DNA of 64,000 bases from assembly GCA_035221665.1 (NCBI GenBank), contig CM069148.1:11346001-11410000 (forward strand), in the 5' to 3' direction. The notes under the pieces were generated by a model. That model made no database searches. It worked only from the letters and a program-made list of their open reading frames with translations, and was not told the DNA's origin. The position numbers were made by a program, and so were the translations under genes. This document shows, piece by piece, positions 7,836 to 61,913 of this stretch (position 1 is its first letter; each line of letters begins with the position of its first letter). The DNA is from Okamejei kenojei (taxonomy: Eukaryota).

Positions 7836-7975
7836 AGCATCTCTGGAGAAAATGGATAGGTGACGTTTTGGGTCAGAGTCTGAAGAAGGATCCCAACCTG
7901 AAACGTCACCTATACCCCAGTATTTTGTGTCTATCTTTGGTATGAACCAGCATCTGCAGTACCTTTTTATTACAG
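7836..7975. mobile_element. PLE pLTR-derived short fold-back element, degenerate
   Basis: gcatctctggagaaaatggataggtgacgtttt..ctgaagaaggatcccaacctgaaacgtcacctat..ccagcatctgcagt matches the 3' end of the PLE at 44590-44720. Confidence 0.8.
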
Positions 7976-10249: not shown

Positions 10250-10659
10250 TTGGTTTGCTCATTTGCAGATGAAACAAAAATTGGAGTTGTGGACAATGAA
10301 GAAGGCTGTCAAAGGATGCAGCAGAATATAGATCAGTTAAAAATATGGGGGCCGGGGGGTGGTAGAGTATCATCGGTTGGGGCATTGAGTATAAAGTCAG
10401 GAAGTCATAATGCAATGAGAACTTTATAAATCTATGGTTAAGCTGTATTTGGATTGTCTGCAGTTTTGGTCGCCCCTTTACAGGAAGGATGTGGAGGCTT
10501 TGGAGAGGATGCAGGAGAAGTTTACCAGAATGCTGCCTGGATTTGAAGGTATGAGCTATAAGGAGGGATTGGATAATCTTGGATTGTTTTCTCTGGAACA
10601 TCAGAGGCTGCACAGAGACCTAATATAAATGTATAAAATTATGAGAGCCAAAAGACAAG
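10250..10659 (+). mobile_element. CR1 LINE RT C-terminal fragment
   Basis: ORF with QFWSPLYRKDVEALERMQEKFTRMLPG, a typical CR1 ORF2 motif. Confidence 0.9.
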
Positions 10660-10673
10660 GTAGTCTTATATGT

Positions 10674-10889
10674 TAAAGAAGGAACTGCAGATGCTGGAGA
10701 ATCGAGGGTACACAAAAGGCTGGAGAAACTCAGCGGGTGCAGCAGCATCTAAGGAGCGAAGGAGATAGGTGATGTTTCGGGTCAAGACCCTTCTTCAGAC
10801 TTCTGAAGAAGGGTCTCGACCCGAAACATCGCCTATCTCCTTCGCTCCTTAGATGCTGCTGCACCCGCTGAGTTTCTCCAGCCTTTTGT
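10674..10889. mobile_element. PLE pLTR-derived fold-back element with 14-bp TSD and hammerhead motifs on both strands
   Basis: About 90-bp near-perfect inverted arms centred at 10800; direct repeat gtagtcttatatgt at 10660-10673 and 10890-10903. Confidence 0.88.
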
Positions 10890-11659
10890 GTAGTCTTATA
10901 TGTAATTATCTCATGCAAAAAATTGTTTCATAAAAATTCTGGTGGATAACTGGAAAGTGATGATAACGAAACTACTATTGAATGTCAAAGAGTATCTATC
11001 ACATTAGCCCTATTATAAATTCAAGTAAATTCTGCAATTGAACAAACTCAGTCGTTGCTCAGAAATAGTTTATGAACATTGGTAATTGATAATGCAAAAA
11101 AATAGAAAACCATGTCAAGCAATCTCCCAAGTTATAGTTGTTGTTTTACAGTGAAAGAAATATGAACCCAGAGGCTGACTTGAAGACTGTTGTGAAGTGC
11201 AGTGCCGCAAGGAAATACATCACCTTATTGCTAATGTCACATTGATAGATGGCATGTTATTTTACAGAAAATACTTCAATCTGAAGTCTTGTCCTTTACA
11301 AATGCGCCGCTGATTTAATACATTCAGAAGCAGACATGAATTGAAAATGACATTCTTAAAAATTATTGGAGAATATTCTCAGAACTGCATTTTAATTCAG
11401 ACATGTTTTGAATAATCTTCATATTAGTGTTGCTACGGAGGCAAGCATCTATGGGGGAAAAAGTAGATTATCCCATAAAGTTACAGAACGTAGCTGCTTA
11501 TAAAGGGCGAAGGTTGTAACTGCACCGAGGCAAAGCAACAATAGCATCCCGAAATAAGTGTGGAAGGAACATGAACTGTATAAATATTTACATTCATATT
11601 TGATATTTGCCAAATGATTCTTTGAGCACCAATCAACATCTGGGATGTCAGCATTAATT

Positions 11660-15180: not shown

Positions 15181-15214
15181 GTCTGAAAGTAATATGTGCA
15201 AGGACTGCATTTGG

Positions 15215-15393
15215 AAGATAGACACAAAATGCTGGGGTAATTCAGCGGGACAAGCACCGTCTCTGGAGAGTCTCTGGTGATGTTTGAGGTCGAATTCCTT
15301 CTCTCCAGAAATGCTGCCTGTCCTGCTGAGTTACTCCAGCATTTTGAGTCTATCTTCGAATGTAACCAACGTCTGCAGTTCTTTCCTACACAC
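15215..15393. mobile_element. PLE pLTR-derived fold-back element with 14-bp TSD
   Basis: Inverted arms; aggactg(c/g)atttgg at 15201-15214 and 15394-15407. Confidence 0.85.
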
Positions 15394-41152: not shown

Positions 41153-41251
41153 GAATTAGTTTGAAGAAGGGTCTCGCCCCAAAACATCGGCCATTCCTTT
41201 TCTCCAGAGATGCTGCCTCACCCTCTGAGTTACTCCAGCATTTTGTGTCCA
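41153..41251 (+). mobile_element. PLE pLTR-derived short element with 12-bp TSD
   Basis: cctaatttatct at 41141-41152 and 41252-41263 flank gaagaagggtctcg..gatgctgcc..ctccagcattttgtgtc. Confidence 0.85.
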
Positions 41252-42129: not shown

Positions 42130-43140
42130 TTACTAAATTCATAAGTTTGCAGAGGACACAAAGATTGGTGGTGTTGTGGACAGTGAAGAAGAATGTTAAG
42201 GCAGTGAAAAAGCAGGATGTAGATTGGTTACAGATATGGCCGAAGAAATGACAGATGGAGTTCAATTGTGAGGTGTTGCATTTTGGGAAGTTTAGTGTCA
42301 GGGGAACGTATAGTTAATGGTAGGATCCTTGACAGCATTGAGGTACAGAGTGATCATGGGCTCCAAGTCCACAGCTCTCTAAAACTAGCAACACGAGTGG
42401 ATAGAGTGGTAAAGGAAGCATATAGTTTGCTTACATTCAGGGTATTGAGTATAAGAATCAGTCAGTCATATTGCATCTATGCAAAACTTTGGTTGAGCCA
42501 TATTTGGAGTATTGTGAGTAATTGGTCGTCCCATTACAAGAATAATGTGGAGGCTTTGGGGAGGGTGTAGAAAAGGCTTATCAGGATGCTGCCTGGATTA
42601 GAGAGTATGAGCTATAATGATAGGTTGGACAAACTTGTTTTCTTTGGAGTGTCAGATGTTGAGTGGGAGACCTGATGAAAGTTTGTGAAATTATGGGAGG
42701 CATCGAAAGGGTAGACAGTCAGAAGATAGACACAAAAAGCTGGAGTAGCTCAGCGGGACGGGCAGCATCTCTGGAGAGAAGGAATGGGTGACGTTTCAGG
42801 TCGGGACCCTTCTTCAGTCAGAATATTTTTTCCTGGCTGGAAATGTCAAATACTATAGGGCATAGCTTTAAGGAGGGAGAAAATTTTGAAGATGTGTGGA
42901 GCAAGGTTTTTTTTCCACAAAAAGGGGTGGCAGGTGCCTGGAGCACATTGCCAAGAATGATGGTGGAAGTAGCTACGATCTTGGCGTTGAAGAGTCTTTT
43001 AGATAAACACATGAATGTGCAGGGAATGGTGGCATATGGATCATGTGCAAGCAGAAGGAAATTAATTTTCACATTATGTTCGGTACAGACATCATGGTCC
43101 AAAGAGCCTATCCCTGTGCTGTTCTGTTCGGTGTTCTTTG
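42130..43140 (+). mobile_element. CR1 LINE, 5'-truncated, interrupted at 42725-42814
   Basis: aagtttgcagaggacacaaagattggtgg (KFA.DTKIG), RVDRVVKEAY and AWSTLPRMMVE motifs. Confidence 0.9.
42725..42814 (-). mobile_element. PLE pLTR-derived short element with 9-bp TSD, inside a CR1
   Basis: cagtcagaa at 42716-42724 and 42815-42823. Confidence 0.85.
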
Positions 43141-43164: not shown

Positions 43165-44720
43165 CCAGACTGGGCGATCAAACCTGCCGACAAGGGAGGT
43201 GCCATGGTAGTCTGGCACGCTGATCTCTACAAGGCTGAGGCCACGCGCCAACTCTCAGACACCTCCTCCTATTTATCCTTAGACCATGACCCCACAGATG
43301 AGCACCAGGCCACTATCTCTAGCACTATCACTGACTAAATCACTTCCGACTCCCTGCCCTCCCAAGCCTCCAAACTCATCGTTCCCCAGCCCCGCATGGC
43401 CCGATTTTACCTTCTCCCCAAAATCCACAAACCTGGCTGTCCTGGCAGATCTGTTATTTCTGCCTGTTCGTGTCCTACCAAAGTTATTTCCACATACCTC
43501 GTTCCATCCTATCCCCCCTGGTTAAATCCCTCCCTCCCTATGTTCAAGACACCTCACACGCTCTTCGTCTACTCCAGGACTTCCGTTCTCTACGCCCCCA
43601 TTCCCTCATCTGACATCCACTATAAACCCACTGACTACCATGGCTATCTGGACTACACTTCTTCCCATCCTGCTTCCTGTAAGGACTCCATCCCCTACTC
43701 CCAATTCCTCCATTTATGCTGCATCTGCACCCAGGATGAGGTGTTCCACATCAGGGCATCGGAGATGTCCTCATTCTTCAGGGAATGGAGGTTCCCCCTT
43801 CTACTATAGATGAAGCTCTCACCAGTGTCTCTTCTAAAACCCAAAACTCTGCTCTCACTCCATATCCCCCCACTCGTAACAAGGGCAGAGTCCCCCTTGT
43901 CCTCACCTTCCACCCATCACCTACAAGAAATAATCCTCCGACATTTTCGCCACCTCGAATGGGATCCCACCGCTGGCCACATTTTCCCATCTCCTCCCCT
44001 GTCTGCTTTCCGCAGAGACTGCTCCCTTCGTAACTCCCTGGTTAATTCGTCCCTTCCCACCCAAACCACCCCCTCTCCTGGCATTTTCCCTTGCAACCGC
44101 AGGAAATGCTACACATGTCGCTTTACCTCTCCCCTTGACTCCATTCAAGGACCCAAGCAGTCTTCCCAGGTGCGGCAGAGGTTCACCTGCACCTCCTCCA
44201 ACTTCATTTATTGCATCCGCTGCTCTAGGTGTCTGCTGCTCTACATCGGTGAGACCAAGCGAAGGCTTGGCGATCGCTTCGCCCAACACCTGCGCTCGGT
44301 TCGCATTAACCTGCCTGATCTCTCGGTGGCTCAGCACTTCAATTCCCCCTTCCATTCCGAATCCGACCTTTCTGTCCTGGGCCTCCTCCATGGCCAGAGT
44401 GAGGACCACCGTAAATTGGAGGAGCCGCACCTCATATTTCGCTTGAGCAGTTTGCACCCCAGTGGTATGAACATTGACTTCTCTAATTTCAGGTAGTCCC
44501 TGCTTTCTCCTCCCCTTCTCAGCTCTCCCTCAGCCCACTGTCTCCGCCTCTTCCTTTCTTCTTCCCGCCCTCCCCCACCACCCTCACATCAGTCTGAAGA
44601 GAGTCTCAACCTGAAACGTTGCCTGTTTCCTTCACTCCATAGATGCTGCCTCACCTGCTGAGTTTCTCCAGCATTTTTGTCTACCTTCGATTTTCCAGCA
44701 TCTGACGTTCCTTCTTAAAC
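43165..44720 (+). mobile_element. Penelope-like element (Neptune type), 5'-truncated and internally deleted, GIY-YIG frame open
   Basis: IKPADKGGA, FYLLPKIHK, YKPTD..YLDYTSSHP and IYCIRC..LYIGETKRRLGDRF..H motifs; 13-bp TSD gataatctattca at 43152-43164 and 44721-44733. Confidence 0.95.
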
Positions 44721-45481: not shown

Positions 45482-46714
45482 GATGTAACTAGTAGCGTGG
45501 ATAAGGGAGAACCAGTGGATGTGGTATATCTGGACTTCCAGAAGGCTTTCGACAAGGTCCCACATAAGAGATTAGTATACAAACTTAAAGCATACGGTAT
45601 TAGGGGTTCAGTATTGATGTGGATAGAGAACTGGCTGGCAAACAGGAAGCAAAGAGTAGGAGTAAACGGGTCCTTTTCACAATGGCAGGCAGTAACTAGT
45701 GGGGTACCGCAGGGCTCAGTGCTGGGACCCCAGCTATTTACAATATATATTAATGATCTGGATGAGGGAATTGAAGGCAATATCTCCAAGTTTGCGGATG
45801 ACACTAAGCTGGGGCAGTGTTCGCTGTGAGGAGGATGCTAGGAGACTGCAAGGTGACTTGGATAGGCTGGGTGAGTGGGCAAATGTTTGGCAGATGCAGT
45901 ATAATGTGGATAAATGTGAGGTTATCCACTTTGGTGGCAAAAACAGGACTATTATTTAAATGGTGGCCGATTAGGAAAAGGGGAGATGCAGCGAGACCTG
46001 GGTGTCATGGTACACCAGTCATTGAAAGTAGGCATGCAGGTGCAGCAGGCAGTGAAAAAAGCGAATGGTATGTTAGCTTTCATAGCAAAAGGATTTGAGT
46101 ACAGGAGCAGGGAGGTTCTACTTCAGTTGTACAGGGTCTTGGTGAGACCACACCTGGAGTATTGCGTGCAGTTTTGGTCTCCAAATCTGAGGAAGGACAT
46201 TATTGCCATAGAGGGAGTGCAGAGAAGGTTCACCAGACTGATTCCTGGGATGTCAGGACTGTCTTATGAAGAAAGAGTGGATAGACTCGGTTTATACTCT
46301 CTGGAATTTAGGAGATTAAGAGGGGATCTTATAGAAACTTACAAAATTCTTAAGGGGTTGGACAGGCTAGATGCAGGAAGATTGTTCCCGATGTTGGGGA
46401 AGTCCAGGACAAGGGGTCACAGCTTAAGGATAAGGGGGAAATCCTTTAAGACCGAGATGAGAAAGACTTTTTTCACACAGAGAGTGGTGAGTCTCTGGAA
46501 CTCTCTGCCACAGAGGGTAGTTGAGGCCAGTTCATTGGCTATATTTAAGAGTGAGTTGGATGTGGCCCTTGTGGCTAAGGGGATCAGAGGGTATGGAGAG
46601 AAGGCAGGTACGGGATACTGAGTTGGATGATCAGCCATGATCATATTGAATGGCAGTGCAGGCTCGAAGGGCTGAATGGCCTACTCCTGCACCTAATTTC
46701 TATGTTTCTATGTT
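45482..46714 (+). mobile_element. Relatively young CR1 LINE, 5'-truncated
   Basis: [33 protein letters not shown], an open 211-aa C-terminal ORF, and a (tttctatg)n tail. Confidence 0.97.
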
Positions 46715-46805: not shown

Positions 46806-46955
46806 AAAAGAACTGCAGATGCTTGTTTACACCGAAGATAGACACAGAATGTTGGAGTTACTCATCAGTCAGGCAGCATCTCTGGAGAAAGGAATAGGTT
46901 TTGGATTGAGTTCCTTCATCAGACGCTGATTATTCCAGCATTTTACGTCTATCTT
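46806..46955. mobile_element. PLE pLTR-derived element with 15-bp TSD
   Basis: cactgt(c/t)aagtggta at 46791-46805 and 46956-46970. Confidence 0.85.
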
Positions 46956-47594
46956 CACTGTTAAGTGGTAGCTGATGTGACTTCAGTACACAGGAAATAG
47001 ATTAAAACCAAGTCACTCCCAGCAAGGATCTTCAGAAGATCACAGCTTCACTAGAGCAGAATTCATCCTCGATTACCCCCATTAACACTTGAAACTAGAT
47101 ATCATCAAATCAATTTTGCTCGCCTCCGTGACCGTCCACAATTATAATGTTCCTCGACCTTTTGTATTAATCAAATTGGTGATAGGCATAATCGTTTACT
47201 TGCTCGTCCAGTCACACAAGGTACAGAAGCAATTCTTAAGACTGGCAGGAGAAGAAAGCACAGGTAATTTGTCACAAAGTTACATTTCACATTAAAATTA
47301 CCATCTCTTGTGTTTCCTCTTGAAAATAAACAAAATTCCCTTTAATACATCGACATTGTTATGGATTCCAAATTTAAAGCAAACTCCATTTAGTCCTATA
47401 AACTCAATCAAAGCTATAAATAGAAAACAATAGAAAAGTAATATGAAAAATCTGGCCGATATACCCAGAGTATCGACAACAGATTACTATACAATAAAAA
47501 TCTTTTGCAAGTACAAAGACATATTTGAATGCAATTGTGTTAAAGCATTATCATGATCATGAAACAACTATATCTGCTGCACTTAATATCAATT

Positions 47595-54662: not shown

Positions 54663-54750
54663 GACACAAAGTGCTGGAGCAACACTGAATATAGACACAA
54701 AGAGCTGGAGCAACTCCGAAGATAGACACAAAGTGCTGGAGCTACTCAAG
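54663..54750. repeat. 31-bp tandem repeat, three copies, derived from the PLE pLTR
   Basis: gacacaaag(t/a)gctggagc units start at 54663, 54694 and 54725. Confidence 0.85.
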
Positions 54751-61491: not shown

Positions 61492-61697
61492 TTGTTCTAT
61501 AATCTATAATTATTATTTTCTAAGTGTCCTCTACCACTTAATGATTCTGGTATTTTCCTTGGTACTGATGTCAGGCTAACTGATGTGCAGTTCCCAGTTT
61601 TTATCCTTTCTCCTTATATTTGTGATCTTTCAATATGCAAGAATAATAATGTGGCCATTCTCCATCATGCTCTGTTGTACTGTCAGTAGGTTAAATG

Positions 61698-61913
61698 GAG
61701 GATAGACATAAAAAGCAGGAGTAACTCAGCAGGTCAGGCAGCATCTCTGGAGAAAATGAATAAGTGATGTTTTGGGTTGAGACTCTTCTTCAAGAAGGGT
61801 CTTGACCCAAAACATCACCTATTCCCCTTCTCCAGAAATGCTGTCTCACCCGCTGAGTTATTCCAGCTTTTTGTCCCTATCTTCGGTGTAAACCAGCATC
61901 TGCAGTTCCTTCC
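61698..61913. mobile_element. PLE pLTR-derived fold-back element
   Basis: Inverted arms centred near 61790 (ctcttcttc|aagaagggtcttgacccaaaacatcacc). Confidence 0.85.

Follow-up and report, generated by a model that had tools for sequence, protein, structure and literature searches.

EN+ Penelope-like elements (PLEs) are known to insert with an inverted 5' copy of their pLTR and a tail on one side only (PMC8557442, PMC2377424, PMC8969392). In Penelope of D. virilis and Pen2a of A. vaga, this canonical tail measures 30-40 bp (PMC8557442, PMC3846280, PMC2377424). The origin of the inverted repeats of PLEs, and of a tail on one side only, has been called unresolved (PMC8557442); self-priming on an antisense template (PMC3846280) and a tail that arises as a product of EN resolution (PMC8557442) have been put forward. 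PAc (Anolis Poseidon) nicks and extends both strands, begins RT at either end of the tail and has been represented as a dimer in modelling; it does not require hammerhead cleavage, and its motif cleaved only with protein (PMC11167929). Inverted repeats are not treated in the accessible text of that study, where "inverted" is used solely for a blocking group. PLEs also carry minimal hammerheads, with CUGANGA, an extra base before stem II, a GAAAC-GUC palindrome and, in D. virilis, a 2-bp stem I, and dual motifs 100-700 bp apart on opposite strands have already been noted (PMC4209133). Non-LTR retrozymes are non-coding, pLTR-related and equipped with a type I hammerhead, and are described as head-to-tail tandems with at least two hammerheads on the same strand (bioRxiv 10.64898/2026.07.22.740005; PMC7229834).

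The window analysed in this study is a 64-kb stretch of the Okamejei kenojei genome. At its positions 10660-10903, a 216-bp insert (10674-10889) is flanked by exact 14-bp copies of a target-site duplication (TSD) at 10660-10673 and 10890-10903 (both plus strand). The tailed (T) arm occupies 10674-10801 on the minus strand and corresponds to positions -2 to +126 of a PLE terminal segment, numbered from the T of TCTGAAGA as +1. Its tail (+92 to +126) lies at 10674-10708 on the minus strand, between what we infer to be two RT start sites, a meaning of the tail that follows the PAc work (PMC11167929). The tail-less (S) arm, +1 to +91, covers 10802-10892 on the plus strand, and its final three bases are common to the right TSD (microhomology). 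The arms meet head to head at 10801-10802, where -2 is joined bluntly to +1, and are 97.8% identical across 91 bp; the predicted RNA fold of the insert has an energy of -186.9 kcal/mol (z -28), a score equalled by none of 200 shuffles. Each arm bears a minimal type I hammerhead-like motif, at 10803-10830 on the plus strand in the tail-less arm and at 10798-10771 on the minus strand in the tailed arm, and in both the stem III G is lost (CATC). The initial annotation of this DNA had described the 216-bp insert with its 14-bp TSD, a hairpin of about 90 bp, and a minimal type I hammerhead motif with a short stem I on each strand, all of which was borne out; stem I measures 2 bp. In addition, a contig of run X20, from another organism, carries the empty site: it joins window position 10663 to 10894 and omits exactly 230 (216+14) bases. 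Together, the TSD and this empty site rule out an assembly artefact as the source of the hairpin. The target (window 10400-10660) is the edge of a decayed LINE fragment resembling an ORF at 45920-46621, and we take both to be CR1-like. The focal hairpin is a short, one-off insertion of a Penelope (PLE) end as an inverted pair, and an object of an ordinary kind.

The window contains 13 family loci at E<=1e-3, the focal copy and a PLE end included. This leaves 12 relatives, where more than a dozen had been claimed, and only five of the 13 loci (at 7836, 10672, 15214, 46807 and 61691) are head to head. The PLE itself (43165-44720, plus strand) is a broken, 5'-truncated member of an older subfamily with a 13-bp TSD; it comprises the 3' part of the RT, a Zn-finger-like linker, a GIY-YIG EN, the 3' UTR, the hammerhead and the tail. 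Two loci earlier listed as relatives, at 41153-41251 (plus strand) and 42725-42817 (minus strand), are single-arm, solo tail-less copies of an older subfamily. Their TSDs of 12 and 9 bp are exact as had been described; those claimed at 15215 and 46806 each contain one mismatch. They belong to an old head-to-head copy without the hammerhead apex (15214-15393, 14-bp TSD) and a decayed one (46807-46956, 15-bp TSD). The remaining old head-to-head copies lie at 61691-61913, with one tail-less and one tailed arm, and at 7836-7965, where part is deleted. A short direct tandem of a pLTR fragment was also seen on the minus strand at 54663-54748. Between the focal copy and the PLE end at 44591-44720, identity reaches only 82-84%; the nearest relatives of the focal copy (97-99%) form a young PLE subfamily. 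The match to the PLE 3' end at 44590-44720 that had been reported indicates a PLE origin correctly, but not the source of the focal copy.

A 28-mer of the young subfamily has 43,276 exact matches in the 2.76-Gb genome (control, 0), which confirms the great abundance first proposed for the family; its proposed PLE origin was upheld as well. We take this repeat to be typical of cartilaginous fishes. Walking along long copies gave the order of the unit: hammerhead segment, tail, long ORF, 3' UTR and the hammerhead segment repeated, with a length of about 3.9 kb in L126. The ORF has the EN+ PLE layout of RT, Zn-finger-like linker and C-terminal GIY-YIG EN with a CCHH motif, and the junctions of UTR, hammerhead, tail and ORF in L151, L153, L159, L161 and L164 reveal a partial tandem pLTR with a tail of 30-40 bp. 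The hammerhead segment is the 5' terminal part of the PLE, with the ORF directly next in full-length copies. The hairpins had been read as a ribozyme plus the terminus of the 3' end; the terminus is indeed that of a PLE, but the segment is its 5' terminal part, a minimal hammerhead plus a tail of about 34 nt. The linker of the window ORF carries Cx4CxxC, a Neptune/Nematis trait, and the family, judged by this motif, looks Neptune-like. A Pfam search of the window ORFs gave no matches, nor did a PDB sequence search with the ORF of L087. As in PAc (PMC11167929), a minimal hammerhead is followed, in the 5' part of the unit, by two 3' ends with a spacing of 30-40 nt; unlike in PAc, the ORF appears to begin after the tail, and the clade differs.

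To count ends, the first 100 listed places of the 28-mer were taken irrespective of structure; they cover the first 5.4 Mb of contig C1 only. With the anchor moved by one base, 96 of the places were found again, in 80 elements. These 80 elements comprised 52 single arms, 22 short and 4 long head-to-head copies and 2 short direct tandems. Among the single arms, 3' ends fell at about +94 (tail-less, 37) or about +128 (tailed, 14), with one elsewhere. Their 5' starts lay at -6 to +8 in 30 cases, at -242 to -1523 in 18 and elsewhere in 4, so that short 5' ends pile up at the 5' edge of the hammerhead. With two fixed 3' sites and a 5' pile-up, truncation is not random. Fold-backs, solo ends and long truncated PLEs form one continuum, in which the fold-backs are a single class. 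The initial annotation had proposed shared or random 5' ends as the test between a true family and truncated PLEs; the ends proved non-random, at +94, +128 and the 5' pile-up, and yet no separate family emerged. Extrapolation gives about 36,000 young elements and about 10,000 fold-backs that carry the exact 28-mer word. A head-to-head apex pattern occurs at 3,344 loci (control, 1), passengers in other repeats counted in, and the 41 loci counted in 170 kb, of which 12 have both strands, extrapolate roughly to about 190,000 inverted copies of all ages. The TSD mode is 14 bp both in pairs (n=63) and in singles (n=27). Two candidate causes of the 5' ends were discarded. Hammerhead cleavage does not explain them, as none of the 52 single arms begins near +30, and RT stalling at stem II was rejected because the pile-up sits 5' of the stem. 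Starts at +31 to +33 were found in 4 of 58 segments of multi-part elements; arms with such starts, in L184, L210, L226 and L232, begin near the predicted hammerhead cut after +29 and possibly stem from cleaved templates.

The pairing of the two 3' ends is nearly absolute. For its analysis, head-to-head loci with a TSD of at least 10 bp were de-duplicated and 9 loci picked for a tail were left out; pairs without such a TSD, the tailed/tailed L245 among them, were dropped. Regular expressions classified 43 of the 54 resulting pairs at both ends, and all 43 combined a tail-less with a tailed arm, where independent choice of ends at the frequencies of the singles (37/14/1) predicts 40% mixed pairs (p 6e-18). 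By eye, the other 11 comprised seven pairs of the same kind and four of a tailed and an early-ending arm; none was tail-less/tail-less or tailed/tailed. The exceptions to the rule are L245, which has no TSD, an older tail-less/tail-less passenger copy, short arms that end early at +65 to +81 (L255, L300, L315), chimeras of an old and a young arm (L124, L225, L314), and L024.

The probable reading of these genomic end patterns, on which the whole mechanism rests, is that a single RNA serves as template for both nicked strands of the target, primed by the PLE at its two RT start sites, and that the two cDNAs are then end-joined head to head. The endonuclease would nick the two strands about 14 bp apart. 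One 3'-OH would prime at +94 and be extended to the RNA 5' end near -2; the second would prime at +128, in the sole part that is still single-stranded, and its cDNA would have to displace the first and would often stop early. The cDNA 3' ends would be joined via microhomologies of 0-3 nt or short templated patches and then filled in. Single priming would yield solo short copies, and priming first at +128 single tailed copies; tail-less/tail-less pairs would not be expected. Long truncated copies and long inverted pairs would arise if a full transcript were primed at its 3' copy of the pLTR, and the fold-back, with its hammerhead buried, is predicted to be a dead end. Both target strands also prime on one RNA in LINE-1 twin priming, which gives an inversion made of two pieces from different stretches of the RNA, with their limits at random points. 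Unlike those, the pieces here overlap and start at two fixed sites.

Asymmetric apexes bear on the order of the two cDNAs. Among 191 loci of this kind, chosen without regard to their outer ends, 30 divide into 22 that have the tail on the truncated arm, 7 (4 independent) that have it on the complete one and 1 unclear case (p 5e-4). In the structure-blind sample, scored by eye and overlapping the asymmetric set at 2 loci, the tail was on the truncated arm in 13 cases and on the complete arm in 3, with 7 ties. A count of 22 to 4 is incompatible with a tailed first cDNA that copies itself by snapping back. This bears on the published proposal of self-priming (PMC3846280), in which a fold-back of cDNA or antisense RNA, formed at the 5' end of the pLTR, serves as template and EN opens the resulting duplex with a stagger of about 34 nt. 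Such a hairpin accounts for the fixed pairing of tail-less and tailed arms, for their shared variants and for apex microhomologies such as GAC/GTC and CAG/CTG, and its antisense-template version would be compatible with the sequence evidence. Target-primed snap-back, however, requires that the tailed arm be the complete one; solo and long copies use the same two end sites without any hairpin, and the long pairs would demand loops of about 800-1900 nt. Extra bases at both outer ends also speak against it and for double priming, as bases of an initiation type: in pairs, more than 3 extra C were found at 7 of 50 tail-less ends and at least 5 A at 12 of 56 tailed ends (singles, 3/18 and 0/6, respectively). 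Self-priming thus seems unlikely.

Double priming on one RNA further implies that the arms share a template. Arms shared 25 non-majority alleles, compared with 5.5 in shuffled pairs (maximum 13 in 2000 shuffles), and differed at 92 of 4463 sites. This indicates that the arms came from one template and were not kept homogenised, and later homogenisation, with 92 discordant against 25 shared sites, is not needed. The earlier proposal that both arms derive from one template lineage is thereby upheld. When one arm is long, moreover, its partner never starts at -6 to +8 (0 of 11, against 30 of 52 single arms; p 8e-5; 12 of 23 rows were dropped from this set as they lacked two pLTR-ending arms), which suggests that the two arms were primed on a single RNA, at one and the same of its pLTR copies. 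An asymmetric dimer could instead prime on two separate RNAs, with one subunit always at +94 and the other at +128. No strand displacement would then be necessary, and a few chimeric pairs (L124, L225, L314) and the discordance at +82 in L210, L260 and L303 fit such a scheme. Nearly all pairs nevertheless have the same allele of the common +82 polymorphism in both arms, the partners of long arms avoid the pile-up, and the chimeras, most of which have no clean TSD, may have arisen by insertion next to old copies, so we regard priming on two RNAs as quite unlikely. Agreement of alleles could also come about if one source locus dominated in each cell, but this would not yield the 0 of 11. L124, L183/L256, L225 and L314 combine an old with a young arm, from two templates or by insertion beside an older copy.

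The weakest step of double priming on one RNA is the putative RNA 5' end near -2. A cap-like G before -2 is only mildly enriched (37/100, p 0.014; 14/24 after post hoc removal of duplicates, p 0.001). The sequence near -2 presumably fits an initiator consensus, and it also resembles a 3' splice site. Just 5' of the hammerhead, both subfamilies (window 44490-44593; L064:2590-2633) have a pyrimidine tract, a branch-like word and CAG, like a 3' splice site, and no GT-AG joint ending at +1 was found among the 15 joints listed of 57, which gives no support to the use of this CAG in splicing. In D. virilis Penelope, an intron ends at helix I, and the Drosophila start site lies upstream of the intron, not at the hammerhead (PMC4209133, PMC2377424). 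The start site of PAc in vitro was no different between strands, which counts against strand-specific starts (PMC11167929); that PAc is a Poseidon enzyme and the family here looks Neptune-like also counts against the model.

In comparison with canonical EN+ PLEs (PMC8557442, PMC3846280, PMC2377424), the copies here have in common inverted head-to-head pLTRs, a one-sided tail, variable TSDs, apex palindromes and solo pLTRs. They differ in that both copies are often only the terminal ~95 and ~128 nt, without ORF, that about 10,000 are young, and that tail-less and tailed arms are paired so consistently. Inverted pLTRs with a tail are already known, and the double-priming mechanism was not found in the literature searched, namely openly accessible main texts on Penelope twin priming, RT initiation and tail, self-priming, and MITE-like or cartilaginous-fish copies. 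More tentatively, and with some doubt on our part, PLE inverted repeats at large might result from sequential double priming on one RNA; the tail would be a landing strip for the second priming, and the ~95/~128-nt copies would be strong-stop-like run-off cDNAs from a capped 5' end. If so, one rule would account, throughout the EN+ PLEs, for solo pLTRs, for fold-backs and for the inverted pLTR that canonically has its tail on one side.

The family motif, CUGAAGA-A-stem II-GAAAC-GUC with a 2-bp stem I, is of the minimal PLE type (PMC4209133). The modal core and stem II occur in 168 of 283 copies. Positions -3 to +28 are identical across three subfamily majorities (31/31), compared with 52-58 of 63 downstream (p 0.014 for the most distant pair), which suggests constraint on this sequence in active elements. 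Stem II covariation had been proposed as a check: stem II is 93.8% paired in 12 copies, and none of 19 stem pairs is changed on both sides, in a region almost invariant across subfamilies. RNAalifold did not recover the hammerhead fold (covariation term 0.03), and an Rfam scan of the window at E<=5 returned 10 matches, none of them a hammerhead and all under gathering scores. The focal copy departs from the minimal PLE hammerheads: the palindromic stem III is kept in the family (CGTC in 195 of 283) and broken in both focal arms, and the fold-back sequesters the motif. The predicted pairing probability of stem II is 0 within the fold-back and 0.03-0.10 in single arms. Hammerhead activity of this putative ribozyme in the focal hairpin is therefore predicted to be unlikely. 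In the tailed RNA (L161:899-1030; window 10674-10802), the tail end is predicted to pair with the hammerhead core, and a conserved 8-bp stem (95.8% paired) has an unpaired bulge close to the site at which tail-less arms end (z -2.0 and -0.9). This fold may bind protein.

The hairpins had been proposed to form a very abundant non-autonomous, retrozyme-like family, in which fold-back RNAs would cleave as dimers and be re-copied by PLE enzymes. The copies here resemble retrozymes in being non-coding and pLTR-related and in having a type I hammerhead, and the ~10,000 young fold-backs obtained by extrapolation, the recurrent apexes, the invariant hammerhead region and a few TSD-flanked pairs whose early-ending short arm could mark a re-copy are all in its favour. 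The evidence on structure and descent points the other way. Retrozymes are head-to-tail tandems, and the copies here are single head-to-head insertions: the blind sample held 52 single and 26 head-to-head elements among 80, and only 2 short direct tandems. A fold-back has one sense hammerhead per strand, buried and outside any tandem, with no stem pair changed on both sides. The exact 26-mer apex of the focal copy is found at 23 loci in total, of which the 20 viewed belong to several subfamilies and include both positions of the tail; apexes vary widely, with microhomologies of 0-3 nt, short templated repeats and many types in every lineage. Alleles at +82 and an A/AA variant occur alike in solo, paired and UTR-attached copies, no lineage allele confined to fold-backs was found among the structural classes compared, and none of 84 short copies tested at different sites had a non-PLE upstream flank in common. 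The two variants that the arms share are not private: in the subfamily the aaggagcgaagg word is the norm, and CATC is present in 32 copies of the hammerhead, against CGTC in 195, from a set of 283 in which some loci had been picked because they resemble the focal copy. True multi-copy fold-backs were found only as passengers of other repeats, with both flanks in common. We conclude that a retrozyme-like family is very improbable; the focal hairpin belongs to no new ribozyme family, and as a ribozyme family finding it is ordinary.

Several passengers were seen. L115, L119, L121, L122, L248, L249 and L322 (contig C1) have an old tail-less/tail-less fold-back inside a repeat of ~680 bp with terminal inverted repeats. 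This host repeat adjoins TTAA/TAA and is presumably a Harbinger-like MITE; the apex of its passenger has 227 exact copies. Another four young PLE pieces, each group of which has its TSD or flanks in common, have been amplified as passengers in GC-rich repeats of 0.4-2 kb (L290/L291/L308/L310; L116/L250; L257/L260/L262; L271/L273/L277/L285).

The genome holds thousands of young, TSD-flanked minimal products with countable ends, and the counts favour one bench-testable model, sequential priming of both strands on one RNA, that connects genomic structure with the pair of start sites used by PAc in vitro. The ~190,000 inverted copies, a rough extrapolation, are a large potential source of dsRNA. 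It is also possible to mistake such a hairpin for a MITE or for the precursor of a miRNA: plant miRNA models match the old fold-back at window 61714-61868 (MIR831, E 8.8e-5, well under the gathering score), which poses a risk of false positives.
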